Below, in pieces: positions 17,396 to 60,616 of a stretch of 64,000 nt of DNA; position 1 is the first letter of the stretch; the number at the start of each line of letters is the position of its first letter. The notes under the pieces were generated by a model that saw only the letters and a program-made list of their open reading frames with translations, ran no database searches and had not been told where the DNA came from. Position numbers and translations under genes: made by a program. The stretch is taken from assembly GCA_016187485.1 (NCBI GenBank), contig JACPJO010000003.1, positions 25,587 through 89,586 of the forward strand. Reading direction: 5' to 3'. The DNA comes from Candidatus Uhrbacteria bacterium (GTDB taxonomy: Bacteria > Patescibacteriota > Patescibacteriia > UBA9934 > UBA10169).

Positions 17396-17439
17396 AGGAG
17401 GACTATTACTTCGGGGACCGTTCCCTCTATCGTTGTGGA

Positions 17440-17467: not shown

Positions 17468-17478
17468 AACACCAGAAT

Positions 17479-22234: not shown

Positions 22235-22916
22235 TCCGCAAAAACAAAAGAAGGCTAAGCCGGGATTGCCGACCCAGCGGTATCTTGATATCGCGGAGGT
22301 TCGGGAAGACAGTGTGGTGCTGAAAGACGGAACGATGCGTGCCGTGCTTATGGTCTCGAGCATTAACTTTGCGCTCAAAAGCGAGGACGAGCAGACCGCG
22401 ATTATCCAGAGCTATATGGCATTTTTGAACGCGCTTGAATACCCCATTCAAGTCGTCATCCAGTCGCGCAAGATGAATATTGATCGTTATCTGAAGACGC
22501 TTGCGAGTGCTGAGCGCACGACGCAAAACGATGCGCTACGCAATCAAATCACCGATTACCGTGCCTTTGTGCGCGAGCTGGTGAGTCTTGGCGAGATCAT
22601 GGAGAAGCGTTTTTACGTCGTCGTCCCTTATGACCCACACACGGACAAAGGAAAGGGATTTTTCCGCCGCTTGAAGGAATCGCTCTCTCCCTCCACCGTA
22701 CTTCGTCTCAAAGCCAAGCAATTTGCAGACCGGTTGGAGCAACTCAATCGCCGTGTCTCTATTATCCAGGGGGCACTGCAGAGCATGTCGCTTAGTAGCG
22801 CGCGTCTGGACACACAGGGACTCATAGAACTCTACTACATTGCGTACAACCCTGACGTGTTTGAGCAAGAGCGTATGACGGATATTTCTAAACTGCGCGT
22901 GGAAGAAAACTTTTAG
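22218..22916 (+). CDS. VirB4/TrbE N-terminal-domain-like protein (separate cistron)
   Basis: LDIAEVREDSVVLKDGTMRAVLMVSSINFALKSEDEQ matches the CagE/TrbE/VirB4 N-terminal pattern (KDGSL...F.L.G.D..S.SEEE). Start chosen at MARKNDPQ, overlapping the preceding gene by 17 nt. Stop TAG lies 2 nt before the ATG of the ATPase ORF. Confidence 0.5.
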   Translation: MARKNDPQKQKKAKPGLPTQRYLDIAEVREDSVVLKDGTMRAVLMVSSINFALKSEDEQTAIIQSYMAFLNALEYPIQVVIQSRKMNIDRYLKTLASAERTTQNDALRNQITDYRAFVRELVSLGEIMEKRFYVVVPYDPHTDKGKGFFRRLKESLSPSTVLRLKAKQFADRLEQLNRRVSIIQGALQSMSLSSARLDTQGLIELYYIAYNPDVFEQERMTDISKLRVEENF

Positions 22917-29057: not shown

Positions 29058-29108
29058 GGAAAAACAAAACAGCCCACAGGGCTGTTTTGTTATTGGGCGC
29101 GTTTTGTT

Positions 29109-29984
29109 ATGATTTCGCCCATGGCTGTCTTTTTCCAACTCCTTGCAAACGGTCTTGTGGCCGCCGCGCTTTATGGCATTTCCGCCATTGGGTTTGGACT
29201 CGTCATCCGTACGGGGAAGTTTTTCAATTTGGCTCATGGAGCCTTTGCGGTCATCGGTGCCTACACGGCGTTTGCGTTCGTCCGTCTCGGTTTGCCGTTT
29301 GGGTGGACGGTACTCCTTTCGCTTACCGCCGCCGTTATCTCTGGCGCGCTGAGTTATGCGCTTGTTATTTTACCTTTGCGGCGCCGGTCGGCTTCTTCGC
29401 TTGTCCTTCTTATCGCTACGCTTGGCGTTTTCACGTTTGTTCCCCCGATGCTTGCCATCGCCTTTGGCAGTGAATACTATTTGCTCCACATCCCGCTGTT
29501 CTTTTCCCGCGTCGTCTCTCTTGCCGGTGCGGCTGTCACTCTGTGGCAGATCACCTTCATGTTGATTTTCGTGCTCCTTATTGTTGGGACCGCGCTTTTT
29601 CTTCGCTATACGGCCTTTGGAAAAGCTGTGCGCGCCGTAAGCGACGATGAAGAGGTTTCAAAGATCATCGGCATTAACACAGATCGTGTCGTTTTCGTGG
29701 TCATTCTTTTCGCGGCTTTTACCGCGGGACTCGCTGGTCTTTTCAAGGCGGGCGACCTGGGACTTGAGCCCACCATGGGGTTCACTCTCTTGCTTGAGAC
29801 TCTCATTGTGGCCGTGGTGGGCGGGATGTACCGGCTTGGGGGAACCGTCATGGGAGCGCTTGTCCTCGGACTCGCGGAAAGTTTTGGTGTGTGGTTTGTG
29901 CCGAACGAATGGAAAGAGGCGATCTCGTTTGGGATTTTGATTCTCTTTTTACTGATCCGGCCGCAGGGGATTCTCTCACGTTGA
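29109..29984 (+). CDS. branched-chain amino acid ABC transporter permease (LivH-like)
   Basis: Polytopic. FFQLLANGLVAAALYGISAIGFGLV...FNLAHGAF is the LivH N-terminus. Confidence 0.8.
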   Translation: MISPMAVFFQLLANGLVAAALYGISAIGFGLVIRTGKFFNLAHGAFAVIGAYTAFAFVRLGLPFGWTVLLSLTAAVISGALSYALVILPLRRRSASSLVLLIATLGVFTFVPPMLAIAFGSEYYLLHIPLFFSRVVSLAGAAVTLWQITFMLIFVLLIVGTALFLRYTAFGKAVRAVSDDEEVSKIIGINTDRVVFVVILFAAFTAGLAGLFKAGDLGLEPTMGFTLLLETLIVAVVGGMYRLGGTVMGALVLGLAESFGVWFVPNEWKEAISFGILILFLLIRPQGILSR

Positions 29985-29985
29985 T

Positions 29986-30831
29986 ATGGAGTACGCACTT
30001 CATCTTTTCATATTTTCTGGCATCTCCGTCATTTTGGCACTTGCGCTCAACGCGGTGGTTGGGTTTAACGGTTTCCTCTCGCTTGCCTCACCGGCCTTTT
30101 ACGGTATCGGGGCCTATGCCGCGGCTATTTTTCTGAAGGACTATCACATCCCGTTTTTCTTTGCGCTTCTTCTTGCGATGATCGTCACGGCCGTACCCGC
30201 TGCGGGGATCGGACTTGTGCTCTCTCGCCTGAAGGAAGATTACTACATGCTCGCTTCGCTTGGATTTGCGTCTATTGCGCACCGGACGTTTGTGAACTGG
30301 CGATCCGTGACGAATGGATCGCTTGGATTTGCCGGCGTGCCGCGCGTTGGCGACATCGGTGAAGTAGCCTTGTGGACGCTTGGAGCGATCGTGGTGGTGT
30401 GGGGACTTCTTCATCTGCTTATGCGTTCGTCGTTTGGGAGAATCTTGCGCGCCATTCGGGAGGATGAACTTGTGACGGCGACTTTTGGCATCAAGACGGC
30501 CTACTTCAAATTAGCGATCTTCGTTATCTCTGCCATGTTTATGGCCCTCGGTGGCGCTATCTACGCCACGTATCTTACCTATGTTGATCCGGCCGCTTTT
30601 CATCCCGCTGTGGCGATCCTCTTGTTGGCGATGGTCGTCGTGGGGGGGCTTGCCAGTCTTCCCGGCGCGGTGCTTGGCGCAGTAGTGCTGAATCTTCTGC
30701 CGGAGCTTCTGCGATTTTTCGGATTCCCTCCGTCCGTGATCGGACAAGTGCGTTTGGCGCTTTACGGACTCGTCCTCACGCTTCTTATGCTCTATCGCCC
30801 CCGAGGATTTATGGGTGCGTACAAGCTCTAG
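29986..30831 (+). CDS. branched-chain amino acid ABC transporter permease (LivM-like)
   Basis: Polytopic, with GFNGFLSLASPAFYGIGAYAAAI. 1-nt gap after livH-like. Confidence 0.8.
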   Translation: MEYALHLFIFSGISVILALALNAVVGFNGFLSLASPAFYGIGAYAAAIFLKDYHIPFFFALLLAMIVTAVPAAGIGLVLSRLKEDYYMLASLGFASIAHRTFVNWRSVTNGSLGFAGVPRVGDIGEVALWTLGAIVVVWGLLHLLMRSSFGRILRAIREDELVTATFGIKTAYFKLAIFVISAMFMALGGAIYATYLTYVDPAAFHPAVAILLLAMVVVGGLASLPGAVLGAVVLNLLPELLRFFGFPPSVIGQVRLALYGLVLTLLMLYRPRGFMGAYKL

Positions 30832-31564
30832 TATGTTTGCGATCGAAACAAAAAATCTCTCAAAACATTTCGGCGGCGTGTATGCAGTTGATCGTCTTTC
30901 GGTTTCAGTAGGGAAGGGGGCGATCACGAGTATTGTAGGGCCCAATGGGTCAGGGAAGACCACGCTCACGCACCTTCTTTCTGGGGTCTTGCCGTGGGAT
31001 GAAGGTACGGTGATCTTTGGTGGAAAAGAACTCAAGCGCTTGGCGCCCCACGCGGGGCGCGAACTCGGTGTGGCGCGTACCTTCCAGCACGTTCGCCTCT
31101 TTGAACAAATGAGCGTCTACGAAAATTTGACTCTTGTTTTGGCAAAACGCACCGTTCTTGCCTCTATCTTTGAGCAAAAGGGGAGTGGGCTGCAGGACAG
31201 AGCGAAAGAACTTCTTTTGCGCGTCGGTCTGTGGGAAAAACGCGATGCGCCAGCTGGAGAGCTTTCGTATGGGCAGCGCAAACTTTTGGAAGTGGCCCGC
31301 GTGCTTGGCGCACGAGCTCGCATTATTCTTTTCGATGAACCCTTTGCCGGACTCTTTCCCGGAATGGTCGAGATGCTCTGTGACGTTATGAGGGAGATGC
31401 GTGGGTCAGGGTGTTCTGTTGTGTTGATCGAACACAACATGAAAATCATCCGTGAGCTCTCCGACGAAGTTTTCGTGATGGATGCCGGAAAACTTCTTGC
31501 ATGCGGGAAACCGGCGGAGGTCCTTGCCCGCAAGGATGTACGCGAAGCGTATCTTGGCGTATGA
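30815..31564 (+). CDS. ABC transporter ATP-binding protein (LivG-like)
   Basis: Walker A GPNGSGKTT, signature LSYGQRKLLEVARVL, Walker B ILFDEP. An ATG at 30833 is an alternative start. Confidence 0.85.
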   Translation: MRTSSSMFAIETKNLSKHFGGVYAVDRLSVSVGKGAITSIVGPNGSGKTTLTHLLSGVLPWDEGTVIFGGKELKRLAPHAGRELGVARTFQHVRLFEQMSVYENLTLVLAKRTVLASIFEQKGSGLQDRAKELLLRVGLWEKRDAPAGELSYGQRKLLEVARVLGARARIILFDEPFAGLFPGMVEMLCDVMREMRGSGCSVVLIEHNMKIIRELSDEVFVMDAGKLLACGKPAEVLARKDVREAYLGV

Positions 31565-32289
31565 ACGGATCTACTCTCCAATTGGAAAAAATCTCGGTGT
31601 ACTATGGGGGTGTGCGTGCGCTTCATGATGTCTCGCTTAAGGTGGATGAGGGGGAAACCGTGGCGCTTCTTGGACCAAACGGCGCGGGGAAATCCACGGT
31701 GCTCAAAGCTATGTTTGGCCTTGTGCAGATGTCCTCTGGCCGAATGCTCTGGCAGGGAAGCACCCTTCGGCCCATCCCACACGAGGTTGTGCACAAAGGG
31801 ATTGCGTTCGTGCCGCAGGGACGGCGGGTTTTCGCCCACCTCTCGGTAGAGGAGAATTTGGATATTGGGGCATGGATTGTGACGGACAAAACGGAGCGCG
31901 AGCGGCGGAGCGAGGAGGTCATGCAGACGTTTCCGGCTCTTCGTGCAAAACGGCGTGCCGTGGCGGGGACGCTTTCTGGCGGGCAGCAGCAGATGCTGGC
32001 GATTGCGCGCGGTCTTATGACCGACCCCAAAATTCTGCTGCTCGATGAACCGTCACTGGGGCTTGCGCCAAAAATTGTGCGCGAGGTGTTTGCGGCCATC
32101 GGGAGCATTCATGAGCGGCACAAGACGGCAGTGGTCATTGTGGAGCACAACATTCCTTCTTTGCTGCCGATCGTGGACCGTGCCTACGTGCTTGATCGCG
32201 GAGAAGTGGTGGCGCAGGGAAGTGGGAAAGAAATTTTAGAGGGGGATACGCTTACGCGTGTTTTGCTTGGAGAGCCTGTGCATGTGTAG
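31561..32289 (+). CDS. ABC transporter ATP-binding protein (LivF-like)
   Basis: ATGA overlap with livG-like. Walker A GPNGAGKST, signature LSGGQQQMLAIARGL, Walker B LLLDEPS. Confidence 0.85.
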   Translation: MNGSTLQLEKISVYYGGVRALHDVSLKVDEGETVALLGPNGAGKSTVLKAMFGLVQMSSGRMLWQGSTLRPIPHEVVHKGIAFVPQGRRVFAHLSVEENLDIGAWIVTDKTERERRSEEVMQTFPALRAKRRAVAGTLSGGQQQMLAIARGLMTDPKILLLDEPSLGLAPKIVREVFAAIGSIHERHKTAVVIVEHNIPSLLPIVDRAYVLDRGEVVAQGSGKEILEGDTLTRVLLGEPVHV

Positions 32290-36915: not shown

Positions 36916-38118
36916 CTAGTTCGTCGGACACTGCGAGGGATTATTTCCGGGACACGTCTTGATGGTCACCTTGCCGCCGGCGCTTACTGCCCTTGTGTAC
37001 GCAGTACTCCCTTCCCCTGTGTAGAGGTCAAGGCGGCGCCCCTTAATCCATGCCCCACCATCTTCGGCATACCACACAGCATTATTTGCCTCGCCAAGAG
37101 GGGAGTCGAAGATTTTAAACACGGTGCCTTTAGGCAGACAAGAACTTACCGCAGCCGTGTGGAACGCTTGGGGGAGGACGGCGGGTGGGCTGGTTTGGTT
37201 GCAGTAGGTGGTGCCTTCGGGGAACGGAACACAGGGCTGCCACTTTCCTCCGGCGGCGCTGCAGGAAGATTCAGGTTGTCTACCATTCGGACACGTACAC
37301 TGCATAGCGATGTTGCATTCAAAACTTTGATACGCCTGCTTCTCTCCGTAAGACGGTTTGTAATATCCTGTTGTGAAAAATGTTACGCCATTTCTCAACT
37401 CTTCCGTGCTCGGGCACCCCATTCCTTTGAATTCCTCTGCCGTGTCGGCCAACTCTGGGTGAGCGACGATACTTGCGGTGAAGTCTGCATCCGAACGCTC
37501 GATTACTTTAAAACTGATTGGCCGCGAGACGACGAGCTGCGGATTCACCGTGTAGAGGAGCAGATAACTGGCAAGGAGAATGACAAATCCCACGATGGCG
37601 TTTTTTATACGCTCCATGCCTTCCTTCGCGCCCTTGCCGGTGGCGCCGAGCATATACTGAATGCCGCCTACCATGATCATCACCACGGCGAAAACGGCAG
37701 CAATGCCGATGAGCCACCGGTAAATGCCGACGATGTATTGGCCAATGAAGTTCACGGAGACACTCCCGTTTTCAAAGACAGGCTTTGTGAACGAGAAGTT
37801 TGGAATGGGCACGGAAAGGCGCGGGACAATGGGGGATGGCTCGACAGCAGGGGGCGTGTCCTCTACGATTTCTGACCGTGCTTCGGAAGAAATAAAGGTG
37901 CCTCCGGCTTGCTGGACCCGTTCCATACACTGCGTCTGACAACGTTCGTTCAATGGTGTGGAACCGGTCTCGGGAATAAACGCCAAACGTGCAGCGGTGC
38001 TTTTTCCGGTCGGGTAGTAATTGCAGTGGCACGCTTCAACGGTTGTTGTTTCTGCCTGCCCAGACGAAGGAAGAAGTGTCCCAAGAATGAAGACAAGGAT
38101 AAGAGCACGCCGCATCAT
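36916..38118 (-). CDS. secreted Cys-rich protein with internal TM segment and C-terminal 3D (MltA/RlpA-like) domain
   Basis: Signal peptide MMRRALILVFILGTLLPSSGQA. Central hydrophobic stretch IGIAAVFAVVMIMVGGIQY. C-terminal GTVFKIFDSPLG...AEDGGAWIKGRRLDLYTGEG resembles the three-Asp 3D domain. Confidence 0.5.
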   Translation of the reverse strand: MMRRALILVFILGTLLPSSGQAETTTVEACHCNYYPTGKSTAARLAFIPETGSTPLNERCQTQCMERVQQAGGTFISSEARSEIVEDTPPAVEPSPIVPRLSVPIPNFSFTKPVFENGSVSVNFIGQYIVGIYRWLIGIAAVFAVVMIMVGGIQYMLGATGKGAKEGMERIKNAIVGFVILLASYLLLYTVNPQLVVSRPISFKVIERSDADFTASIVAHPELADTAEEFKGMGCPSTEELRNGVTFFTTGYYKPSYGEKQAYQSFECNIAMQCTCPNGRQPESSCSAAGGKWQPCVPFPEGTTYCNQTSPPAVLPQAFHTAAVSSCLPKGTVFKIFDSPLGEANNAVWYAEDGGAWIKGRRLDLYTGEGSTAYTRAVSAGGKVTIKTCPGNNPSQCPTN

Positions 38119-38782: not shown

Positions 38783-40027
38783 TTATTTCAATCGCAGGAT
38801 CTGAAGAATGCCCGTGGAGGCATTTGTGAAGAAGAGGTTCCCTCCATCCTCGCTCACGCTTACGTGATCAATGGACTGCGGTGTGTCGGGAATGGCGACA
38901 AGCTCGGCCGACCCCGTTTCTACATTCACGCGGTAAATAGCGTCGGCACTCTGGGCGGAGAGTTGTCGCTGTAATCCCACGTTTGCCGGCAAGCGTTGCG
39001 GCACGGCGCAGTAAAGTGTTGTTCCTGATGTAAACGAGCATTTGTCCGCCCATGTTTCTACACCGAGACTCTTCCGGTTGTCCCCGATGGATTGGGCGCG
39101 GCCGCTCACCGCCCAGAGCATCGGGCGGTAGCCGTTTGTGTCACCCACCGCGGAGTACACAAGCGCGTCACCCTGCGTATTCCACAAAGGTTGGAAATCA
39201 AATCCTTCCACCACGAGCCCCTTAAAGTTTTCTTCATTCTTGCCGATAGGGATAATCATTTTGCGTCCAAAGCCCGAAAGTGTGGGACCGGTGTCGGAGA
39301 ATGCGATGACTTGATCGTTTGGCGACCAACTTGGGATCACCTTGTCCGCGTTATCGCCAAGAGCAGCGATGGCACGCGTGTTTGAGCCGTCTGTTTTCGT
39401 GATGACGAGGGCGCGGTTACTCGGATCGATCCCTATGCTTTTCGCAAGAATTTCGTCCCCTCTTGGTGCGAAGGAAAAATCTTCCCAGTGGCGCGGTAAG
39501 GACACTTGTTTGCCAGCAGAAAAGTCATAAACAACATTAGATCCGTCGGGGAATTCAAGCACCGCTGATGATCCTTTGGCGTTCCACGTCACGTTCTCGA
39601 CGTTTGCAAACTTTTTGTCAGAGATTCTCTCTACATCTCCCCCTGTGCTAATCCGATAGAATCGCCCGTCTGCTTTATCGTAGTATTGCATGCCATTGCC
39701 GTCTTGGCTCAACGTGGGCGCCGTGACGCGCGCGCTTGTGAGAGCTTGCGTCTGCGTGACGCCCCCTTCTGCAACGGGTTTCGCGCCCGGAAGAGTTTGC
39801 GCGCGCGGAATTTCCGCCGTTCCTTCCGGAGAGGCTGTTCCTGGGGGAGCGCCGAGGCCTGCAGCAGGAAGCCCCGTCTCTTCACGCGTTGTCTCCGCGG
39901 GAGGGATTGCCTCGGGCACGCGTGCCTGCGGGGTTTTGAAAAACACCAAGTAGATAGCCGCGCCCATGGCAGCGATGAGAACAATGAACCCGAGGATAAG
40001 CAGGACCTGCCGAAGACGTGGGGACAT
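38783..40027 (-). CDS. membrane-anchored TolB-like beta-propeller protein
   Basis: N-terminal TM, Pro/Ala-rich linker, and repeats of the PD40/WD40-like type (SWSPNDQVIAFSD, FTNASTG). Confidence 0.5.
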   Translation of the reverse strand: MSPRLRQVLLILGFIVLIAAMGAAIYLVFFKTPQARVPEAIPPAETTREETGLPAAGLGAPPGTASPEGTAEIPRAQTLPGAKPVAEGGVTQTQALTSARVTAPTLSQDGNGMQYYDKADGRFYRISTGGDVERISDKKFANVENVTWNAKGSSAVLEFPDGSNVVYDFSAGKQVSLPRHWEDFSFAPRGDEILAKSIGIDPSNRALVITKTDGSNTRAIAALGDNADKVIPSWSPNDQVIAFSDTGPTLSGFGRKMIIPIGKNEENFKGLVVEGFDFQPLWNTQGDALVYSAVGDTNGYRPMLWAVSGRAQSIGDNRKSLGVETWADKCSFTSGTTLYCAVPQRLPANVGLQRQLSAQSADAIYRVNVETGSAELVAIPDTPQSIDHVSVSEDGGNLFFTNASTGILQILRLK

Positions 40028-40029: not shown

Positions 40030-40668
40030 TTATGTTTCAATCTCTGGGAGAAAATTTGGCATGAGAGCGCGGAACATCGGGCGCATTTCCGGGAACGAGG
40101 TATAGGCGTCCAAAGGGTTGAATGCGGCCCACATCACAAAGGCGATGGAGGGGAGGACCACAAAGAAAAGAAACGCAAGAAGCAGGAAGCCCATAGCGAA
40201 GGTGCTCTTTTCAATCAAGTTCATCTTGACGGTGATGGATTTTAGAAAAGGATTTTTACTTTTTGTTATGGTCCGCCAAAACTCAAGAGATCTCCATGCC
40301 ATCCATGTTGCTCCTGCAACGACGCTGCCAAGAATCGTCTCGGCGGTTATGAGAGCCGTACCCAGAAGTGCGCGCTGTTCGTTTCGCACAAACGGCCGTT
40401 TAAGATCTTCTTGTTTTTCTTCTTCCTGTGCCGCATCCTCCGACGCCGACCCCGCCGCAATATTTCCTGCCTCTGCCTCTCGCGCTCGGGCAATTTGTGA
40501 GGCGCGTTCTGCCTCAAGCGTCAGCGCAGCTGCCATGACTGCATCCTCGTCTGCTTGATCTATTGTTGCCGGCCGTGGGATTGCCTCTGTACGCCCAAAA
40601 GAAAGGGGCGCAGCTTTTCCCCCTTCGAATTGCAGCCAACGTTCGTGCTCCACGGCAATGTCGGCCAT
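40030..40668 (-). CDS. hypothetical membrane protein
   Basis: 212 aa. Acidic N-terminal half, then 2-3 TM helices. No family recognised. Confidence 0.4.
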   Translation of the reverse strand: MADIAVEHERWLQFEGGKAAPLSFGRTEAIPRPATIDQADEDAVMAAALTLEAERASQIARAREAEAGNIAAGSASEDAAQEEEKQEDLKRPFVRNEQRALLGTALITAETILGSVVAGATWMAWRSLEFWRTITKSKNPFLKSITVKMNLIEKSTFAMGFLLLAFLFFVVLPSIAFVMWAAFNPLDAYTSFPEMRPMFRALMPNFLPEIET

Positions 40669-44733: not shown

Positions 44734-46083
44734 ATGAATGTTCCAAAAACCATCTTTAAATCGTACGATATTCGTGGGCTTGCGCAGGGAGAATTAAGCC
44801 AAGAATTAGCGCGCCGTGTTGGCGCGGCCGTCGTGCGTCTCACGGGAGCGAAACGTTTGGTTGTTGGACGCGATATGCGCGAGACAAGTCCCGCGTTTGC
44901 AGAAGCTGTTGTTGGGGGAGCAATGGCGGAAGGCGCGCATGTGGTGGATATTGGGCTTTGCTCCACGCCGCTTTTCAATTTTGCCGTGACGCATTATCCC
45001 GACCATGACGCAGGCGTGATGGTGACGGCTTCGCACAATCCTGTTGCCTACAACGGATTTAAAATAGTGCGCCATGACGGTACGGTGGTCGGAGGAGGGG
45101 ATGGAATGGAGGCGGTGGCGGAGTTCGTGCTTTCGGATGCGCCTGTGTCGGATCATGCCGCGGGAAGTGTGACGTCGCTCAACGTGGAAGAAGAGTATCT
45201 GCAGGAGATTTTTTCACAATCTGCCCCGCTTCCTGATCTTTCTGGATTTGTTGTTGCGGTAGATGCGGGTAATGGGATGGGGAGTCTCGTTCTGCGACCG
45301 CTTTTTGAAAAGCTTGGATGCGCATGGCAAGGACTCTACCTTGATCCAGACGGCCGTTTCCCCAACCACGAGGCGAATCCATTGAAGGAAGAAACCCTTC
45401 ACGATATACGGAGGCTCATGGAGACCGCGCATGCGCACGTCGGTATTGCGCTCGATGGAGATGGTGACCGCGTAGTCTTTTTGGACGAAACAGGGGCGGT
45501 GATCCGCGGAGACCACATTATCGCCATGCTGGCGCCTGATATCTTGCGACGGTACCCGGGCGGGAAAATTTACTACGATCTTCGCTCGACACGTCGCGTG
45601 GCAGAAGCGGTGACCTCCGCGGGCGGCGTGCCGGTTATGTCCGAAGTGGGACATGCAAATTTCAAGCGCCACTTGGTGCGCGACGGCGGCGTTTTTGGCG
45701 GGGAGTTCTCCTGTCACTTCTTCTTTAAAGAATTTGGTTCTGCGGAAGCGTCGGAGTATATGATTGTTCTTCTCTTGTCTCATCTTGCCCGTTCAGGGAA
45801 AAAGCTCTCCGAACTTGTGGCGCCCTTTCGCACGCCGCACAGCGGCGAGATCAATTTTGAGGTTGCCGATAGGGAAGCGGCTCTTGCGCGCGTGGTTGAA
45901 AGATACGGGGGGGTAGCGAAACAACGACTGGACATCGACGGCGTCTCGTTCTTTTTTGACGGGTGGTGGTTTAACCTTCGTCCTTCCAACACGGAGCCTC
46001 TTGTGCGGCTGACGCTCGAGGCGGATTCGGCGGAGCTCATGGAGCAGAAGAAGGCGGAGATTTCCTCGCTTGTGGCGGTATGA
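44734..46083 (+). CDS. phosphomannomutase/phosphoglucomutase (alpha-D-phosphohexomutase family)
   Basis: Active-site TASHNP, metal-binding DGDGDR, sugar-binding GGEFSCH. 449 aa. Confidence 0.85.
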   Translation: MNVPKTIFKSYDIRGLAQGELSQELARRVGAAVVRLTGAKRLVVGRDMRETSPAFAEAVVGGAMAEGAHVVDIGLCSTPLFNFAVTHYPDHDAGVMVTASHNPVAYNGFKIVRHDGTVVGGGDGMEAVAEFVLSDAPVSDHAAGSVTSLNVEEEYLQEIFSQSAPLPDLSGFVVAVDAGNGMGSLVLRPLFEKLGCAWQGLYLDPDGRFPNHEANPLKEETLHDIRRLMETAHAHVGIALDGDGDRVVFLDETGAVIRGDHIIAMLAPDILRRYPGGKIYYDLRSTRRVAEAVTSAGGVPVMSEVGHANFKRHLVRDGGVFGGEFSCHFFFKEFGSAEASEYMIVLLLSHLARSGKKLSELVAPFRTPHSGEINFEVADREAALARVVERYGGVAKQRLDIDGVSFFFDGWWFNLRPSNTEPLVRLTLEADSAELMEQKKAEISSLVAV

Positions 46084-46775
46084 TAACGAACATCTATACG
46101 GACTATCGCCATCCAGAGGTTCGAGGATGGATGGCGGGGAAAGAACCCCGGGCTTTTGCGGTCGCTGGCGAGGAGTTGGTAGATATTTGGTCTCGTCCCA
46201 TTCGCCAGATAGAACTAGCAAAGAGCGAAACGCGCAATCGTCTGCGCGCGACGCAAATCACGCGCAAGGATCCTTCCTTGCACATTCTTTCGCCTGACAT
46301 CGAAGGGTGGGTTCTTGTGCGCTTGCATGAAGGAACGGTGGGGTGGGCGCGCAAAGAAGCCTTGCGTGTTGTGGAAACACCTGAACATCCTCACGAGCCT
46401 CTGCTGACCGACGCGGCGTTTTTCGAACTCTATCGTCACACACCCTATGTACGCGGCGGCAACACGCCAAAAGGTATAGATTGCTCTGGGTTTGTGCAAA
46501 GATATTTTGCGCTTGTACACGGAGTCTGGCTTCCGCGACACTCGACGGATCAATGGAAGGCCGGTCGGCCTCTGCACGATGAACCCTGTTTGCCGGGCGA
46601 TATTTTGCAATTGCGTCATCGAGAGAGCAGCCGCGACCATGTGGGTATTTGTTGGGAAGGGGGCCAAGTGCTTCACGCCTGTCTTGACCAGCAAGGCGTG
46701 TCGCTCGAGTCCAAAAAATCGGTACAAGAACGGTATGACATTCTCGGAACCACACGCATTCGATCTCACGAATAA
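46080..46775 (+). CDS. NlpC/P60-family cysteine peptidase with N-terminal SH3-like region
   Basis: Catalytic Cys in GIDCSGFVQRYF, His in SRDHVGICWEG. 231 aa. Confidence 0.7.
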   Translation: MITNIYTDYRHPEVRGWMAGKEPRAFAVAGEELVDIWSRPIRQIELAKSETRNRLRATQITRKDPSLHILSPDIEGWVLVRLHEGTVGWARKEALRVVETPEHPHEPLLTDAAFFELYRHTPYVRGGNTPKGIDCSGFVQRYFALVHGVWLPRHSTDQWKAGRPLHDEPCLPGDILQLRHRESSRDHVGICWEGGQVLHACLDQQGVSLESKKSVQERYDILGTTRIRSHE

Positions 46776-48162
46776 GACGCAGAATATCCATGTTGTTGGC
46801 GCGAGCGGCGTGGAAGGCACGACGGTGCTCTTGTTTTTGCGACGCGAAGGCTTTCAAAACATCGTGGGACACGCTCTGTGTGCGAAAGAGTCGTTTGAAA
46901 AAGAAATTCTGCAGAGCCACGGTTTACAAGAGCCCGCTCAAAAAAACGAACTCCTCTCTCGTGTGCGTGCCGCTGCCGTGCCGCTTCACTGCGACACGGA
47001 GTATCTTTCTGGCGTTGAAGAGGCCGACATTATTTTTGTGCCGCAGTCGTGGGAACTCTATCCGGAGAATGCACGACTCGCGTCACTGCGCGAGCGTTTG
47101 CGTAACGTGATGCAATTATATGTGGCGCTGGCTCCGTGCAAAACCATCGGTGTGACAGGGAGTGATGGGAAGACAACGACCGCTCACCTTATTTGGCACA
47201 TTCTCTTATCGGCAGGGAAACCCGCGTGGCTTTCGGGCAATTACCGTCACGGTCCGCATATGCTTGCAGAACTCTCCACGCTTGATCCGAACGGTTTTCT
47301 CGTTTTGGAAATCAGTAATCGCCACCTGAATTTTGGTCTTCCGAAGACCCCCAACATCGCGGTCATTACCAACGTTACGCAGAATCATTTGACGGAATAT
47401 AAAGCGTTCGATGAATACATCGAGACAAAAGGGAGAATTCTTGGTTCGGGGACGGTGGCGGTGCTTAACGCCGATAACCCCATCACGGCGTGTTACCAAA
47501 ACAAGAGACTCGCCAACCGTTTCTTATTTTCAAAGCATCTTGAGGTAAACGGCGCCTGTGTGCGTGGAGAAGAAATATGGATGCAGGATGAGTGCCTTCT
47601 TTCTCTCGCTGACATGCCGCTTGCAGGGGAACATAATGTGGAGAATGTGTTGGCCGCGGTTACTGCAGTGAAGCTTCTTGGTTTGTCGTCTGCAGAGATC
47701 AAAAAAGGCGTGCGGACATTTGCGGCGGTGAAAGAACGTCTGCAGTCGCTTGGGTTTGTGGACGAGCGGGAACTGATCAACGATTTGAGCGGGACGAGCA
47801 TGGAGTCCACGCGGCGTGGGGTGAAAGCGTTTTCCGGACGACCATTGGCGGTGGTGCTTGGTGGTTCAACTAAAGGGGTGGATTATGCGCCGCTCGCGCA
47901 AACCCTGAAGGAGCAAGGTGTTGTGGTCTGTGGAGTGGAAAGTGAGGTAGCCGATGCACTTCGCACGCTTGGCGTCCCTCTTTCCACTTTTAACACGGCG
48001 CGTGAGGCGCTTGAAGACGCGCACAAAAAAACTCCACGCGGGGGAGCGATCCTTGTCTCGCCGGCTGGAGCGTTTTTTGCCTCGCGGTATCTCCCGCAGG
48101 GACTCGAGGCCGTTATTTCATCTCTTCAATGGCGCGTAGAGAAACAGGCTCAAGCGAAGTAA
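46735..48162 (+). CDS. murD: UDP-N-acetylmuramoylalanine--D-glutamate ligase
   Basis: Mur ligase P-loop GVTGSDGKTTT. N-terminal Rossmann IHVVGASGVEG. C-terminal domain. Start trimmed from the track ORF (46492) to the first ATG that gives a MurD-like N-terminus; it overlaps the preceding gene by 41 nt. Confidence 0.75.
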   Translation: MTFSEPHAFDLTNKTQNIHVVGASGVEGTTVLLFLRREGFQNIVGHALCAKESFEKEILQSHGLQEPAQKNELLSRVRAAAVPLHCDTEYLSGVEEADIIFVPQSWELYPENARLASLRERLRNVMQLYVALAPCKTIGVTGSDGKTTTAHLIWHILLSAGKPAWLSGNYRHGPHMLAELSTLDPNGFLVLEISNRHLNFGLPKTPNIAVITNVTQNHLTEYKAFDEYIETKGRILGSGTVAVLNADNPITACYQNKRLANRFLFSKHLEVNGACVRGEEIWMQDECLLSLADMPLAGEHNVENVLAAVTAVKLLGLSSAEIKKGVRTFAAVKERLQSLGFVDERELINDLSGTSMESTRRGVKAFSGRPLAVVLGGSTKGVDYAPLAQTLKEQGVVVCGVESEVADALRTLGVPLSTFNTAREALEDAHKKTPRGGAILVSPAGAFFASRYLPQGLEAVISSLQWRVEKQAQAK

Positions 48163-48262
48163 GCTCAAGCTCGGCGCCGCAATTCTCGCACACGGAAACG
48201 TGCCCCACGGATGGGTCCTCCGGCAACGCGATTTCGGCAGAACAGTCTGGGCAGGAAGGCAT
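48113..48262 (-). CDS. LysW/ArgW-like small zinc-ribbon protein (49 aa) with atypical C-terminus
   Basis: MPSCPDCSAEIALPEDPSVGHVSVCENCGAELELTSLEPVSLRAIEEMK. The pattern CPxCxAEIxL...CExCGAELEL...L.P matches the amino-group carrier protein LysW, but the tail ends EEMK rather than EDWGE. Below the ORF-track size cut-off. Overlaps the murD 3' end by 50 nt on the opposite strand. Confidence 0.4.
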   Translation of the reverse strand: MPSCPDCSAEIALPEDPSVGHVSVCENCGAELELTSLEPVSLRAIEEMK

Positions 48263-48303
48263 AGAAGGAATAGATAAATCTTGTCTGTGCTAGTATAGCG
48301 CGT

Positions 48304-49173
48304 ATGTATCTTACCCCTCTAGAGGAGTCAAGAGATCTTGCGGAAGCGCTTGGCGTGGAGCGCATGTTTTTGAAGAGGGAGGATCAGACGCCGACCGGCT
48401 CGTTTAAGTATCGAAGCGCTCTCCGGCAGATAGAGGATATGGTGGAGCATGGAGAGCGTGCCGGGGTGGTTTCCTCTTCGGGGAATGCGGCAATCTCGCT
48501 TGCGCACGAGGCGAAAGCCCAGGGGGTCACGCTTTTTGCTTTTGTCCCGCCCAATCTTTCTTCTGCAAAGACGGCAGCGCTTTTGGCGTACGACCCTGTG
48601 GTGATTCAATCAACACGCGCCATGAGACTCGCGAACTATCTTGCGGCCCACTATCGCATACGCAATCTTCGTCCTTCGATAGACGATCGTGCGGTACTTG
48701 GGTTTGTCCCGCTTGGAGAAGAACTTGCCGAGCAGGTGGAGGAATACGGGGGAGTGGATGTAATCGTGAGTTTTTGCACAAGCGGGGCCAGCATGCTTGG
48801 CATGTGCCGTGGCTATCGTGCGGAACCGCGCCCAAAGTTTTTTGCCGCGAGGAACCTGTCGGTGGGGTGTTATGGGATTGAAAAGAGCCCTCGTCTTGCG
48901 GATGTTGCAGACGTTGCGGAACTTGTAGATGTCTCAGACGATGCCGTAGAGCGAACACAAAAGTTGCTCACGCGTGCGGGCATATGCGTTGCCAGAGAAG
49001 CGGCGGCGAGTCTTGCCATCGTTTTAGAGCGCCAGCTTAATGGGCGCATTCTATGGATCGTTTCTGGAAAGGATTGGGGTGTGGGAACCATGAATCCACA
49101 AGCCGCAAACCTCTATCGCGCAGAGACCTTTGAGGATGTTGACAGAATCTATGCAGAACATGCCCGCGTTTGA
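48304..49173 (+). CDS. fold-type II PLP-dependent enzyme (threonine synthase/cysteine synthase/Ser-Thr dehydratase-racemase-like)
   Basis: PLP lysine motif TGSFKYRS and glycine-rich SSGNAAISLA loop. 289 aa. Confidence 0.7.
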   Translation: MYLTPLEESRDLAEALGVERMFLKREDQTPTGSFKYRSALRQIEDMVEHGERAGVVSSSGNAAISLAHEAKAQGVTLFAFVPPNLSSAKTAALLAYDPVVIQSTRAMRLANYLAAHYRIRNLRPSIDDRAVLGFVPLGEELAEQVEEYGGVDVIVSFCTSGASMLGMCRGYRAEPRPKFFAARNLSVGCYGIEKSPRLADVADVAELVDVSDDAVERTQKLLTRAGICVAREAAASLAIVLERQLNGRILWIVSGKDWGVGTMNPQAANLYRAETFEDVDRIYAEHARV

Positions 49174-50317
49174 AGAACCTATTTTTGTTGTCCATCCGCA
49201 TGACCTTTACTTGTGGGGTCTCGAGGAAGTGTTTCCAAACGCATGTTTTCTTGTAGACCAACCGGGGTGCCTTTCAACGATTGATTTATTTGAGTATGCA
49301 GATGTTACCCGGCGTATCCCAAAAAACTCTGCCGTTCTTGTTATGAAGCCAGCGCCCAAGCTCTCCAAGATAGCAGGGGATCGTGGGTGGAGACTTTGCG
49401 CGCCGTCGGTCGAGTTGAATCGTCGTTTTGAAAACAAGCTCACCATCAATAACGAATTTCTTGCGGTGCATTTGCCGACTCTCCCGTATCTCGTAAGCCC
49501 GCTTGAGAAGCTCTCGTATGCAGCGCTTCGTGAGCGGTTTGGCCCCCGTCTTGTTGTACAGAAAGAGCGAGGGCACGCAGGATCAAGCACGCATGGAGTC
49601 GGATCTCTGGAAGTCTTTGAGAATTTGAAGAAAGAAATTGCCTCCTTTCCCGCAAAGATAAGCCCGTGGTTGGAAGGAGAAACGTGGACATTGAACGGTG
49701 TTGTGACAAGATTTGGCACCCTTGTTTCGCGTCCATTTCTCCAGCTTCAAAATGTTGCGGCTTACGGAACATCGAATCCTTTTACGACGTGCGGGAATGC
49801 GCATGTTCCCATTGGGGATGAGTTGGCGCTTGAAATCATGGGGCAGGCGGAGCGGTTTGGCGCACATCTTCACCGGGAAGGATACAGCGGGTGGTTCGGT
49901 CTTGATGTGCTGGTGAAAGATGGAACTATCGTGGGGTGGATTGAGTGTAATCCGCGGCTCACGGCTTCGTGCGGAGTATTTTCCGCCATGCAAAAAGAGG
50001 CAGGGCAGACGCCCTTTGCGCTTCTTCACGTTCTCGAGACACTCGGAATCCCCTATACACTTGATCTTGTCCAGGAACAGCGACGTCTGGCGGATGGATT
50101 TATGGAATCGCATGTCGTGTTGCGCAACGAGAAATCAGAAACCATGAAATGTTCTTCTGTGCCGCCACGCACTCCGTGGAGCGTATTGCGCGGGGGGGAG
50201 AAGACGATGGTGGCAAGGGCTCCCGGCACAGAGGTTCCGCCGGGCGAGCCGTTTGCGGTGGTGTACAAACGCGGTCTCTTCTCGCCAGAGGAATTGGCAG
50301 GATTGCCTACATGTTAA
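49160..50317 (+). CDS. ATP-grasp carboxylate-amine ligase (CarB-module/L-amino-acid-ligase-like)
   Basis: GWFGLDVLVKDGTIVGWIECNPRLTASCGVFSAMQKEAGQTPFALL parallels the IEVNPRASRS...ATG.P.A segment of CPSase-type ATP-grasp domains. Start uncertain (49130-49160). Confidence 0.6.
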   Translation: MPAFEEPIFVVHPHDLYLWGLEEVFPNACFLVDQPGCLSTIDLFEYADVTRRIPKNSAVLVMKPAPKLSKIAGDRGWRLCAPSVELNRRFENKLTINNEFLAVHLPTLPYLVSPLEKLSYAALRERFGPRLVVQKERGHAGSSTHGVGSLEVFENLKKEIASFPAKISPWLEGETWTLNGVVTRFGTLVSRPFLQLQNVAAYGTSNPFTTCGNAHVPIGDELALEIMGQAERFGAHLHREGYSGWFGLDVLVKDGTIVGWIECNPRLTASCGVFSAMQKEAGQTPFALLHVLETLGIPYTLDLVQEQRRLADGFMESHVVLRNEKSETMKCSSVPPRTPWSVLRGGEKTMVARAPGTEVPPGEPFAVVYKRGLFSPEELAGLPTC

Positions 50318-50365: not shown

Positions 50366-51490
50366 TTAGAGCGTTTGAATACCGACCTCGCCATCGAGAA
50401 AGCGGTGCATTTCTCCTTGCGTGGCGAGGTGCGCCAAGCGGGAGAGCGCCAGGTCTTCGCCGTTGTGCGGCGAGAGCGTTGCGAGTTCGTGGCGCATCTG
50501 CTCTTGCGTCTGCTCGAAGACGGTGTTGACGGCACGGCGGACGTCTTCATCGAGGGCAAGAATGTCCAGGACCTTGCCCGTTTCGGTCTGGCTGACACGC
50601 GCGGCCGCGACGAGATCGTCAAGGCTCTGGCGCGGGAAGTGCATACCCTTCGTGATGTAGGGCAGGAGCTCCGTGAAGCGCGACTCCTGCAGAACGAGGA
50701 TGCGTGCCACAAGGCCGATGCGCGCGATCATCTTGCTCTTCTTTGAACGGGTGTCGGCGATGGTGGTCATGATTCGGCGGATCAAGGTTACACGGTCGCG
50801 AAAGGTTCGGGGCACGCCGCGTAAGCGGGTCCAGTACTGGTAGGCCTCGAAGGCTTCCCAGATGTGGCAGTGCCCGTAGTCCACTCGCAGAGGAAAGATG
50901 AGCCGAGAGATGCGCTCCTTCTTGTAGCGCAGGGCCATCTCTGCCATGAGCGTCGCGGCCTCCTCCATGTGCGTGTCGGCGAGGATGACGACGAACTCGT
51001 CGCCACCGTGCCGCACCCCGAAGTGGCGCAGAAGGAGGACGTTCTCTCCATGCTCGTCGTATCCCGTCGCGAGGCGTTCGGTGTCGAGGAAGCTCTGCAA
51101 GGTCGCGCCGAAGCGCTCCAGAACCTGGTCGCCCACCTCATGCCCGTAGGCATTGGCGAGCGCCAAGTAAGAGAGATCTCCCCAGATGAGCGTGGTGTTC
51201 ATCGAGGCGATTTCCGCTGGCGTCAGGTTCTCGATCGGGAGTCCTCGCATGAGTTTTCCCGCCACGGGCGTGTCCATGAAGCGGCGGATGAGCGCGGCCA
51301 AGTGCGGCCAGAGCTCGTCGCGGCGGAACAGCCCAGTGAGACCGTCGCGCCGCCGCCGTTGGATCTCGGCGTCTTTCCGCTCCAGGTCTCTGTTGAGGCG
51401 CTCGACCTCTTTTTCTTCTGCGAGGATTCTGTCCTCGAGTTCTCGAATGCGCGCGTGAGCTTCGAGCAGGGTCGTCGGTAGAGTATCCAC
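50366..51490 (-). CDS. GGDEF-domain protein (putative diguanylate cyclase) with N-terminal coiled coil
   Basis: RHGGDEFVVIL GG(D/E)EF motif. N-terminal heptad-rich segment. 62% GC. Confidence 0.8.
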   Translation of the reverse strand: MDTLPTTLLEAHARIRELEDRILAEEKEVERLNRDLERKDAEIQRRRRDGLTGLFRRDELWPHLAALIRRFMDTPVAGKLMRGLPIENLTPAEIASMNTTLIWGDLSYLALANAYGHEVGDQVLERFGATLQSFLDTERLATGYDEHGENVLLLRHFGVRHGGDEFVVILADTHMEEAATLMAEMALRYKKERISRLIFPLRVDYGHCHIWEAFEAYQYWTRLRGVPRTFRDRVTLIRRIMTTIADTRSKKSKMIARIGLVARILVLQESRFTELLPYITKGMHFPRQSLDDLVAAARVSQTETGKVLDILALDEDVRRAVNTVFEQTQEQMRHELATLSPHNGEDLALSRLAHLATQGEMHRFLDGEVGIQTL

Positions 51491-58137: not shown

Positions 58138-58986
58138 ATGCCTGTTAAGAAAAAGGACCTTCGGGTCGACTCCTACATGGAGTTCGTCGAGTTCGTTCCC
58201 GCCCCCCTTCGTCCATTGTACTGCGTCCTTCTGGCGCTCTCGCAGAGCATGGGCCAGGTGTACGAGTACCACAAGCTCCTGTCGGCCCACTGGCAGCTCG
58301 TGAAGGCTGACGTGATCCGTCTGAAGAAGGTCTGGAAGGACCTGAACGGTGGTGACCTCGGCCGTACCTTCTACAAGCTCCAGCTTCTCGAAGCCTCGCG
58401 AGCACTCCTTCTCCTGCAGTGGTCCGTAGACCCTCAGACAAATGTCTCTGGCTACTACATCGATCGTCTTGTCGAGGCGTTCGGAGGGAATCGATCAGAG
58501 GGGCGTTCTCCGTCTTCATCTTGCGTTCTGCTTGTAGAGGAGGCTGAGGGAGTGACGGGGGTGACGGAGGAGACCCTCTCCAGGTTTCAGAGCCCTGCCA
58601 TGTTTACCGTTGAGATGATCGAATGTCTGATGAACGCGAGTGTCGAGCTCCATCAATATCCGAATCGTGGATGGATGGTCGAAGTGTGCGCAGCAGATGC
58701 CTCGTTCCAGAGGCTCGATGCACATGTTGTCGACCGCTTCATCGATAAGGTTCCTAAGGAGTTTGTTCTGATTCAACGGCACAGCGGTACGCGGGGACGG
58801 TCTGCCGCAACGACTTCCTGCACGATGTGCATCACGGTACCCTGCAACCTGCCGCTCGAGGCGAGCTCATCGGTCACGATGGGCGAATGGATCGCACCCG
58901 ATGCGTTTCTCTCTGACCTCAAGGTAGCTCTGAATGCGGCGGGAGTCCCGGTCTCTGACATCAGGCGTCCCATCAAGGCTGCCTGA
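58138..58986 (+). CDS. hypothetical protein (282 aa)
   Basis: RBS GAGGTGA plus ATG. No recognisable family. Followed by the conserved 3' element A. Confidence 0.45.
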   Translation: MPVKKKDLRVDSYMEFVEFVPAPLRPLYCVLLALSQSMGQVYEYHKLLSAHWQLVKADVIRLKKVWKDLNGGDLGRTFYKLQLLEASRALLLLQWSVDPQTNVSGYYIDRLVEAFGGNRSEGRSPSSSCVLLVEEAEGVTGVTEETLSRFQSPAMFTVEMIECLMNASVELHQYPNRGWMVEVCAADASFQRLDAHVVDRFIDKVPKEFVLIQRHSGTRGRSAATTSCTMCITVPCNLPLEASSSVTMGEWIAPDAFLSDLKVALNAAGVPVSDIRRPIKAA

Positions 58987-59435: not shown

Positions 59436-59716
59436 TATGTCGACACTCCGGTTATTGACACCTCTCTCCGATAGTGCTCAAATAGCCGCATCCTGCCTTG
59501 TCAGCGGGACTCATACGAGGACGTATGATGCTATCCGGCCTCTCTCAATCATGGGAGAAAACGTTGCGGGGACGCAGCGGGTCGGCGAAACAACATCCCA
59601 GGCAAATCCGTCGGGAGACGGATGGGACATTTCCAAGCCGGATGTGGTCAGTCGGTTTGGTTCTGCGGGGACGCAGAGCGCCTTTGGCGGAATGGTTTCA
59701 CGACCTTGGACAAACC

Positions 59717-60616
59717 ATGTCGACGTTCAGTGAGATTCTTGAGCACTTCAGGAAGCTTGGCTACAGGGATCCGAAGAAGCTCGCGCGGATCTGGCAGATG
59801 GCTGTGAGCGTGCGTGACGTTCGACGTCTGCACGACATCATGCCCGAGGGGGATCAGCTGCTCCGGCACGATCGGCGGCTTCTTGAGAAGGGTTGGGAGG
59901 ACTACACGAAGACGCGTCCCAAGCCGTGGCGTCGTTTCGATGATGACGTAGCGAAGGCAGAGCTCTCCGAATACGCATCCCTCTGTGCCCACCATCCCTA
60001 CTACGCTCGTACCATCGTCCACGCGCACATGCAGGAGAGGAAGGGGGCACCGCACCCGCGTCGATCGGAGTACTGGTCCGTAGGCGCACCTCGTCCGCAT
60101 CTCTCCATCGTTCAGCGGAGCCTCGAGCCCCACATCCTCTGCGATGCATTCACGGGATACCTTGCCGGCGTCCTGTGCCAGATCGCATGCCTCTACAATA
60201 GGCAGACCAGCCCCGCCGAGTTCCTCGTGGAGGTCACGATCGACGCATCGTGCCTTACGCACACTGCGTCAACGCTTCTCCTGCCGGTGCTGACCTGCGA
60301 GGACCACTGCTTAGATGCGGTCAACAATCGGTTGGAGTTCCGCTACATCATCTCCGCCGACAGCCTGGTCTCACACCTCAAGAAGGTGGAACGGCCTAGT
60401 GGTCGTGTTCACGTCGTGGCGGAGCCCGGGTTCGCTGCCGCGCTTGAAGGTGTTCTGCGGGAGAACGGCCTTCAGACCATCGAGCAGATCAAGCTCGTCC
60501 TGCCTGATCTCGTCCTGGCATCGGGGCATGAAATCGACGACAGGAGGAGTAGAGGAGCGTATTTCACGGTCGACTCCCGTGACCCGCACTGCGTCGTCAC
60601 CATGAATGTTTCCTGA
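59717..60616 (+). CDS. hypothetical protein (299 aa)
   Basis: Start moved to MSTFSEILEHFRKLGY; the upstream part of the track ORF is R/G-rich. Followed by 3' element B. Confidence 0.45.
   Translation: MSTFSEILEHFRKLGYRDPKKLARIWQMAVSVRDVRRLHDIMPEGDQLLRHDRRLLEKGWEDYTKTRPKPWRRFDDDVAKAELSEYASLCAHHPYYARTIVHAHMQERKGAPHPRRSEYWSVGAPRPHLSIVQRSLEPHILCDAFTGYLAGVLCQIACLYNRQTSPAEFLVEVTIDASCLTHTASTLLLPVLTCEDHCLDAVNNRLEFRYIISADSLVSHLKKVERPSGRVHVVAEPGFAAALEGVLRENGLQTIEQIKLVLPDLVLASGHEIDDRRSRGAYFTVDSRDPHCVVTMNVS

Follow-up and report, generated by a model that had tools for sequence, protein, structure and literature searches.

Does a 49-amino-acid open reading frame (ORF) that lies antisense across the end of a murD-like gene in a Candidatus Uhrbacteria bacterium encode a protein carrier for amino-acid chemistry, and what would the enzymes encoded beside it do with such a carrier? 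The question is raised by a locus within a 64,000-nucleotide stretch of contig JACPJO010000003.1 (assembly GCA_016187485.1, positions 25,587 to 89,586), which in its full length is called the window and whose own numbering is used throughout. An initial annotation of this stretch had noticed a mini-ORF with the zinc ribbon of LysW, an amino-group carrier protein (AmCP), and had linked it to a fold-type II pyridoxal-phosphate (PLP) enzyme of the PALP family, to an ATP-grasp ligase and to a neighbouring murD. The mini-ORF proved to be a genuine gene, conserved in relatives, and to belong to a five-gene module, comprising an NlpC/P60 peptidase, a MurD-derived ligase, the LysW-like protein, a PALP enzyme and an ATP-grasp ligase, which occurs in Uhrbacteria, Anaerolineae and Dormibacterota. 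We infer that this module is a variant of carrier-protein-mediated amino-acid chemistry of which we know no earlier description.

The mini-gene and its Lys-ended family

The LysW-like mini-gene (positions 48113..48262, minus strand) begins with ATG and encodes the 49-residue product MPSCPDCSAEIALPEDPSVGHVSVCENCGAELELTSLEPVSLRAIEEMK, an acidic protein which has cysteines at C4, C7, C25 and C28 and a tail of fixed length whose final residues are IEEMK. Its 3' end and that of the Mur-family ligase gene, which stops at position 48162, overlap in antisense by 50 nt (48113..48162), where the IEEMK and stop codon of the mini-gene lie opposite the residues ISSLQ of the ligase. An antisense overlap in equal codon phase was also seen at loci L009, L014, L016 and L027 and in Dormibacterota, where it spans 35 nt (L029, 10140-10174); as computed from the coordinates, codon position 1 lies opposite codon position 1 in the overlaps of both Uhrbacteria and Dormibacterota. 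The mini-gene and the PALP gene have divergent start codons only 11-46 nt apart, so each promoter must sit within the other gene. In the Dormibacterota copy of the mini-gene, a Shine-Dalgarno sequence, AAGGAGAG, is located 7 nt 5' of the ATG. The mini-ORF, the PALP enzyme with its TGSFKYR segment and the ATP-grasp ligase with its NPR segment were each found where the initial annotation had placed them, and the coordinates agree with its description of a mini-ORF that diverges from the two enzyme genes and overlaps the ligase gene over its final 50 nt.

The mini-gene is uncalled on all eight contigs that bear the locus, and an exact look-up of its product returned no called gene; gene callers have systematically missed it in Uhrbacteria because it runs antisense over the 3' end of the gene for the Mur ligase. 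Several Logan metagenome contigs carry identical loci, and the distinct orthologues number seven (those of the window and of L009, L014, L016, L025, L027 and L018). The mini-ORF is present in 6 of the 6 distinct relatives with a readable junction between the ligase and PALP genes, a count from which L012 was left out because an N-gap falls exactly at the mini-ORF site. In pairwise comparisons of the orthologues outside the overlap, the differences at first, second and third codon positions number 125, 100 and 289, respectively, and the ratio of non-synonymous to synonymous differences (pN/pS) is 0.13-0.45, with pS near saturation. Within the overlap, the differences by mini-ORF codon position are 51, 38 and 64, corresponding to ligase codon positions 1, 3 and 2, and the third positions of the ligase are the least variable there, which is the reverse of what is expected from selection on the ligase frame alone. 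The synonymous-site comparison envisaged in the initial annotation shows that selection follows the mini-ORF frame, the overlap included.

For PF21344 (Zn_ribbon_LysW), which has a gathering cut-off of 27, the product scores 47.9 bits (E=1e-12), and a phmmer comparison with Thermus LysW (3wwl) gives E=7.5e-10. An AlphaFold2 (AF2) model built on 35 family members has a predicted local distance difference test score (pLDDT) of 88.8, and the top six matches to it in a Foldseek search of the PDB are all LysW chains (template modelling (TM) score 0.74-0.82, root mean square deviation 1.2-2.4 Å), followed by a match with E=2.9. The model predicts that the mini-protein adopts the LysW zinc-ribbon fold, as the initial annotation had proposed from its sequence. 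That annotation had also allowed for coincidence, namely a chance ORF antisense to the 3' end of murD and the intergenic spacer. The shortness of the ORF, its overlap with murD and its being uncalled on eight contigs would fit such an origin, but this explanation is refuted by orthologues retained in three phyla, the third-position bias, the LysW hidden Markov model match and the confident LysW fold.

The mini-protein shares its zinc-ribbon fold with the LysW and ArgW AmCPs of Thermus, Sulfolobus and Thermococcus and with the secondary-metabolite AmCPs of Streptomyces, being 38-47% identical to Thermus and Thermococcus LysW (TM about 0.8). Like these proteins, it is small and very acidic and has a flexible C-terminal tail (predicted in this case), and its gene adjoins those of an ATP-grasp ligase and of a hydrolase potentially able to free a product. 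However, it scores 41.0 against TIGR01206, for which the cut-off is 53.2 (the Dormibacterota copy reaches 46.3), and 37.6 against NF041070, for which it is 75, so the comparison with TIGR01206 suggested in the initial annotation places it among LysW relatives yet below the equivalog cut-off. Its C-terminus, which had been noticed as unlike the LysW tail, does end in IEEMK; the tail is 4-5 residues shorter than that of LysW and has an invariant Lys end instead of the terminal Glu of EDWGE, and consequently the attachment chemistry that LysW carries out on the γ-carboxyl of its Glu would be inapplicable as such. In addition, neither LysX/ArgX nor LysZ/Y/J/K genes neighbour the module loci in the three phyla, where, in place of the kinase, reductase, aminotransferase and M20 peptidase of LysW, the mini-protein is accompanied by a Mur ligase, a PALP enzyme and an NlpC/P60 peptidase.

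LysW-type proteins are, to our knowledge, the sole protein carriers of amino-acid biosynthesis that hold their substrate through an amide bond, and all those of which we know combine a terminal Glu with a LysX-type ligase. It is scarcely credible that the mini-protein is simply the canonical LysW or ArgW of the α-aminoadipate lysine pathway or the arginine pathway, as the NCBI and JGI labels of its relatives ('lysine biosynthesis protein LysW') and the agreement of fold and Pfam domain would have it, since it falls short of both LysW-specific models, lacks the terminal Glu γ-carboxyl that defines the LysW mechanism and has other neighbours.

When the mini-ORF alone was the query, a word-seeded search for homologues gave one match, and it was exhaustive HMMER searching together with an alignment query that revealed the family to which it belongs. 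The exhaustive search, over 1.84 billion representatives, produced 261 matches, and 32 of the top 150 end in K; a profile search of a set of 5.8 billion proteins added more than 90 further K-ended proteins, nearly all of them labelled 'lysine biosynthesis protein LysW'. The sources of K-ended proteins include Shapirobacteria, Dormibacteria, CPR2, WWE3 and Firestonebacteria. In total, 243 small LysW-like proteins were retrieved, of which 124 end in K, and the tail past the last CxxC motif is 21-22 residues long in 120 of these 124, as against mostly 26 residues (20 of 33) in the Glu-ended proteins of the same set, which were taken as canonical LysW. Glu fills the two positions preceding the Lys (-1 and -2) in 118 of the 124, with M or T found in Uhrbacteria and V-Q in WWE3-like proteins, and in an alignment of 35 sequences the sole invariant residues are the four Cys and the terminal Lys. 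An invariant last residue at the end of a tail of fixed length fits a Lys that must enter an active site. Judged from these sequences, the K-ended proteins are a second lineage within the LysW fold, widespread and marked by a terminal Lys that does not vary. The AIEEMK ending is indeed a variant tail, as had been noted, but not a local oddity, because it belongs to a large '...EEK' subfamily.

No curated family in Pfam or NCBIfam covers the K-ended carrier candidate, its ATP-grasp ligase or its PALP enzyme, and the name 'lysine biosynthesis protein LysW' is probably wrong for more than 100 entries; to count them as evidence for the α-aminoadipate pathway would mislead metabolic reconstructions. 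Two of the HMMER matches (P0017 and P0025) are repeat proteins and were dropped as false positives, and a tblastn search of plasmids with a K-ended protein recovered just canonical Glu-ended LysW and noise. Among P0018, P0171, P0178, P0185 and P0199 there are tandem proteins with two LysW-like ribbons, P0018 ending ...LIEEEK, and a separate group of 106-108 amino acids that ends ...RPQA.

The five-gene module and its enzymes

In Uhrbacteria relatives whose ATP-grasp ligases are 43-67% identical to that of the window, the five-gene order is kept, antisense mini-gene included, while the flanks vary; the Uhrbacteria module is preceded by a GlmM-like phosphoglucomutase/phosphomannomutase (PGM/PMM) gene. 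In an Anaerolineae metagenome-assembled genome (L018), all five components are encoded on one strand, the stop of the NlpC/P60 gene overlaps the start of the ligase gene, the LysW-like ribbon ends ...LFEEEEK, and the PALP enzyme and ATP-grasp ligase are fused in one protein of 905 amino acids. Identities between the L018 and window proteins are 30% for the ligase over its full length, 27% for NlpC/P60, 40% for PALP (the N-terminal half of the fusion) and 29-37% for ATP-grasp. The Dormibacterota loci (L029-L036) have the five genes in equal order, with a LysW-like gene of 57 amino acids (...PFEDEEK) on the opposite strand, and an NlpC/P60 orthologue lies immediately 5' of the ligase gene in L018 and in L029-L034. 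A gene fusion and a gene order kept in three phyla provide strong evidence of a functional unit. The gene taken for murD and the NlpC/P60 gene upstream of it belong to this conserved module, and the link that the initial annotation had drawn between the mini-ORF and the PALP and ATP-grasp genes is borne out by their co-occurrence across phyla and by the fusion in L018.

Searches of the literature for AmCPs and for LysW in combination with Mur ligases, ATP-grasp, NlpC or the Candidate Phyla Radiation (CPR) found no description of the module, and this result, together with the lack of a curated family, agrees with the earlier suggestion that the system is previously undescribed. None of the five module proteins matches a known defence family in PADLOC. 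In L029, genes for a MoxR-like AAA ATPase, a von Willebrand factor A (VWA)/Rv0959-like protein and a family-less protein of 287 amino acids precede the module in an operon-like run (12582-16857, minus strand); neither the Uhrbacteria nor the Anaerolineae loci have these three genes. Downstream of the ATP-grasp gene, the window encodes a GGDEF-like protein (50366-51490, minus strand), at which site relatives have response regulators or other genes, and on some of the identical contigs it is ORFs of the plus strand that were called here instead.

The first gene of the module in the window (46080..46775, plus strand) encodes an NlpC/P60 cysteine peptidase (PF00877, 69.6 bits against a cut-off of 23) and overlaps the start of the ligase gene by 41 nt. 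The N-terminal part of the protein is SH3b-like (a weak SH3_16 match), YkfC (3h41) aligns over both domains, and the Cys in GIDCSGF and the His in HVGI align with those of MepS/Spr. Visual inspection found no evident signal peptide.

The Mur-family ligase (475 amino acids; 46735..48162, plus strand) matches PF08245 with 91 bits, and its L018 and L029 counterparts pass the PF02875 cut-off. MurD is its best match in both NCBIfam and the PDB, and the two have in common the central and C-terminal domains, which are intact in the module ligase, the P-loop (TGSxGKxTT, invariant across the three phyla) and the presumed carbamylated-Lys and His motifs, the NH and K motifs being kept. However, the window, L018 and L029 ligases all stay below the TIGR01087 murD equivalog cut-off of 211.95 (202.3, 201.4 and 192.1, respectively). 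The best PDB match, MurD 3lk7 (E=3.7e-41), aligns from residue 127 on, and phmmer alignments to MurD structures begin at residues 110-127, so the N-terminal domain, which binds UDP in MurD, remains outside the alignment; a Rossmann-like VVGxxGxEG is present in this part of the module ligase.

The Lys in the NDSK(A/S)TN motif of MurD binds D-Glu. The aligned residues in the three phyla are NDLSGTS, DDLNATT and DDLSSTT, a pattern of (N/D)DL(S/N)xT(S/T) in which this Lys is replaced by S, N and S. Two further motifs, Q-x-W and D-L-x-x-T, are invariant in the three phyla, and Q-x-W presumably occupies the position of the SPG motif of E. coli MurD, a placement judged by eye. Unlike murD, the ligase gene lies outside a division and cell wall (dcw) context in all three phyla. 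From these sequence comparisons, the module ligase is probably not a true MurD: the neighbour reported as murD is a Mur ligase, as stated, but it falls short in several MurD tests.

The PALP gene (48304..49173, plus strand) encodes a fold-type II PLP enzyme of 289 amino acids (PF00291, 118.6 bits against 35) which has the PLP-binding Lys in TGSFK and an SSSGNAA loop, the K of TGS(F/H)K being invariant. The best NCBIfam subfamily score is 57.6 bits, where cut-offs range from 266 to 801, and the family profile finds in the PDB serine-dehydratase-like proteins (74 bits), threonine dehydratase (72.6), threonine synthase (71.8), SbnA (63) and serine racemase (56). The enzyme appears to form a clade of its own, roughly equidistant from the known subfamilies. 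The classification proposed in the initial annotation could therefore confirm the PALP family but assign the protein to no known subfamily, as it lies below all subfamily cut-offs.

The ATP-grasp gene (49136..50317, plus strand; 393 amino acids) overlaps the PALP gene by 38 nt, and its product matches PF02655 marginally above the cut-off (24.9 bits against 23.2). It carries IECNPRLTAS, and K101, D257 and E270-x-N272-x-R274 are invariant across the three phyla. The AF2 model (pLDDT 91) has biotin carboxylase, PurK and PurD as its top Foldseek matches (TM 0.6-0.68, E about 1e-16). Comparison with PDB sequences by phmmer and by a first profile gave nothing meaningful, and a broader profile gave marginal matches. 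The only named relative is NF005096/PRK06524, an uncharacterised 'biotin carboxylase' family, against which it scores 92.8 bits (cut-off 684). Only 14 homologues were found among 5.8 billion proteins (ATP-grasp scans: GTDB, 2 loci; metagenome, 5 loci). No RimK or LysX model or structure was among the matches in Pfam, NCBIfam and the PDB, no Ddl model was among those in NCBIfam, and the family profile scores 16 bits against Ddl (E=0.035). By these measures the enzyme falls in a biotin-carboxylase-like, PRK06524-like subgroup that is neither Ddl-like nor LysX/RimK-like, which answers the question of its class posed by the initial annotation with none of the LysX/RimK and Ddl clades considered there. 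The idea that a PALP racemase and this ATP-grasp ligase replace Alr and Ddl is not upheld, since the ATP-grasp ligase is not Ddl-like and the PALP enzyme falls into none of the known subfamilies. Within the 64-kb window, neither ddl nor alr, whose presence elsewhere in the genome the initial annotation had thought informative, was found, nor was there another Mur ligase or a dcw gene. To judge from their intact motifs, the module enzymes look catalytically competent.

The closest annotated relatives of the ATP-grasp ligase adjoin a PLP enzyme and a peptidase or sit in clusters for the ligation and removal of peptide tails. On plasmids of Rhizobium and Chondrinema (L037, L038), a PRK06524-like relative adjoins a PLP decarboxylase-like protein of ~900 amino acids and a C45 peptidase, and in L019 (the P0014 context) another is clustered with a 7TM-transglutaminase, ATPgrasp_ST, MATCAP, FGase and a Ddl_C-like protein. 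These plasmid and L019 relatives belong to other systems and are of interest by analogy only.

A putative carrier cycle and its rivals

What might two ligases, a PLP enzyme and an amidase do with a small, acidic protein that ends in Lys? We lean, if not strongly, towards a reading in which the mini-protein would serve as a covalent carrier or primer on whose terminal Lys the two ligases and the PLP enzyme work, and would be relieved of its product by the NlpC/P60 protein. The analogies behind this proposal are LysW and other AmCPs, RimK acting on ribosomal protein S6, and cyanophycin synthetase, and it arises because an acidic mini-protein accompanied by two ligases, a PLP enzyme and an amidase recalls the LysW pathways, in which a substrate is loaded, modified and released. 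In such a cycle, the flexible tail of fixed length would bring the invariant C-terminal Lys into the active sites of both ATP-dependent ligases, which, as carboxylate-amine ligases, would attach a small unit derived from an amino acid and then extend it; the PLP enzyme would produce or alter this unit, and the NlpC/P60 protein, as a cytoplasmic amidase, would free the product and restore the carrier.

With less confidence, we favour a polarity that would be the reverse of that of LysW, in which the substrate is held through its carboxyl group on the ε-amine of the Lys and keeps its α-amino group free. The change from Glu to Lys and the need of PLP chemistry for a free α-amino group both favour attachment of this kind. 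Alternatively, the tail could be extended from the α-carboxylate of the Lys, in the manner of RimK and CphA or as a mimic of a stem peptide (...Glu-Lys-X-Y), which is equally compatible with the data. The ε-amine polarity can be spelled out as a carboxyl-group carrier that an ATP-dependent ligase would load with an amino acid such as Asp or Glu, or with a hydroxy-amino acid in phosphorylated form; the load would be processed by the PLP enzyme, extended by the Mur-type ligase and cut off by NlpC/P60, acting as an isopeptidase, to give a γ-glutamyl or diamino-acid product. So specific a scheme is doubtful, although if true it would mean that a peptidoglycan-like building block is made in CPR bacteria, Dormibacterota and Chloroflexota. 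If the covalent-carrier proposal holds in its general form, the K-ended proteins would constitute a second lineage of LysW-fold carriers with an entirely different enzyme set, in poorly understood phyla that include genome-reduced CPR bacteria which have retained few biosynthetic pathways.

Known systems offer partial parallels to such a carrier. As in CphA1, ATP-grasp and Mur-ligase-type active sites might act together on a peptide primer at its C-terminus, and, as with RimK and S6, an ATP-grasp enzyme might lengthen a protein made by the ribosome at its acidic C-terminal tail. In contrast to both, the module ligases are separate proteins, the putative primer is a dedicated zinc ribbon, and a PLP enzyme and a peptidase are added; the L018 ligase scores 54-57 bits against cyanophycin synthetase models and 201 against MurD. 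A further proposed parallel is provided by CysO-CysM and by the pearlins (TglA, AmmA), where a small dedicated protein or peptide bears an amino acid on its C-terminus during building, and in the case of CysO the partner, like PALP here, is a fold-type II PLP enzyme. Unlike CysO, the module carrier would have neither a ubiquitin-like β-grasp nor a GG terminus, and, unlike pearlin pathways, the module is without a tRNA-dependent PEARL ligase, such that loading would fall to the ATP-grasp or Mur-type ligases.

Several considerations weigh against the covalent-carrier proposal. The ATP-grasp ligases known as partners of LysW are of the LysX/RimK type, to which that of the module does not belong, the PALP sequence points to no one reaction, and covalent loading itself, like the order of steps, the substrate and the product, is something that we infer. 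The Mur-type ligase may have a housekeeping role as a MurD, and the proposal leaves unexplained the antisense placement of the carrier gene, which is kept in Uhrbacteria and Dormibacterota and not in Anaerolineae. Moreover, gene context was read in three phyla, and the K-ended proteins of Shapirobacteria, CPR2, WWE3 and Firestonebacteria are known by sequence only.

Of the other explanations, the one that makes most of the Mur ligase holds that the locus serves ordinary or alternative peptidoglycan precursor metabolism, with a true MurD, a PALP racemase and an ATP-grasp ligase that handle a D-amino acid, and an accessory ribbon, in the manner of MurD2/MurL or of Asl/Rac. A MurD paralogue or variant that works with a dedicated partner enzyme is a precedent for such an arrangement (PMC8788868). 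MurL itself, which has no known domains and forms AMP (PMC8788868), is unrelated to the PALP and ATP-grasp proteins, and MurD2/MurL was rejected as a homologue of the system. The kinship of the ligase with MurD, the GlmM-like gene that precedes the cluster in Uhrbacteria, the peptidoglycan peptidases among the relatives of NlpC/P60 and the want of another Mur ligase within the window all fit this explanation. Nevertheless, we regard it as unlikely, because three lineages fall just under the MurD cut-off, the Lys of NDSKxTN is replaced, the N-terminal domain, which seems to have diverged, stays outside the phmmer alignments with MurD (and Q-x-W stands, as judged by eye, where SPG would be), the gene is outside dcw clusters in three phyla, the ATP-grasp ligase is not Ddl-like and a protein with an invariant terminal Lys would be left without a role.

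Such a role would be non-covalent if the zinc ribbon were a subunit, scaffold or regulator that bears nothing on its tail. The globular domain of LysW serves as a recognition module in complexes with LysX, LysZ and LysY, which are the top structural matches of the mini-protein, the tail is shorter than that of LysW, and the antisense arrangement could control stoichiometry; yet the last residue and the exact length of the tail are the most conserved features outside the four Cys, which would be hard to explain for a docking domain and makes this rather improbable. Still less probable, and in our view a poor candidate, is a system for tagging proteins or the cell wall, in which the small protein would be ligated through its tail to proteins or stem peptides and removed by NlpC/P60 as a deconjugase, in the way of Pup or ubiquitin. 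Two ligases and a papain-like peptidase match the logic of conjugation and removal, the Glu-Lys end of the tail resembles that of a stem peptide, and relatives of the ATP-grasp ligase cluster with MATCAP and transglutaminase-like proteins. However, a tagging cycle would have no use for a PLP enzyme, which in L018 is fused to the ATP-grasp ligase, neither targets nor recognition components are encoded in the module, and visual inspection found no export signal on its proteins.

Other features of the window

The G+C content is 59-65% over the first ~18 kb (1-18000) and 51-56% across 18001-64000, a step that could reflect the horizontal acquisition of a block or a join in the assembly. For two large adjacent plus-strand ORFs of 923 (17479-20250) and 504 amino acids (20252-21766), and for those at 22185-22916, 38783-40027, 40030-40668, 58138-58986 and 59498-60616, Pfam gave no match at E<=1e-5. 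A VirB4/TraG-like P-loop ATPase (22919-24895, plus strand) and a protein like the pilin of a type IV secretion system (36916-38118, minus strand) fit the monoderm-type type IV secretion system that a preprint reports for Patescibacteria (10.1101/2025.01.22.634366). In addition, a complete Liv-type branched-chain amino-acid ABC transporter, consisting of a binding protein, two permeases and two ATPases, is encoded at 27894-32289 (plus strand) and points to amino-acid uptake by an organism of little biosynthetic capacity.

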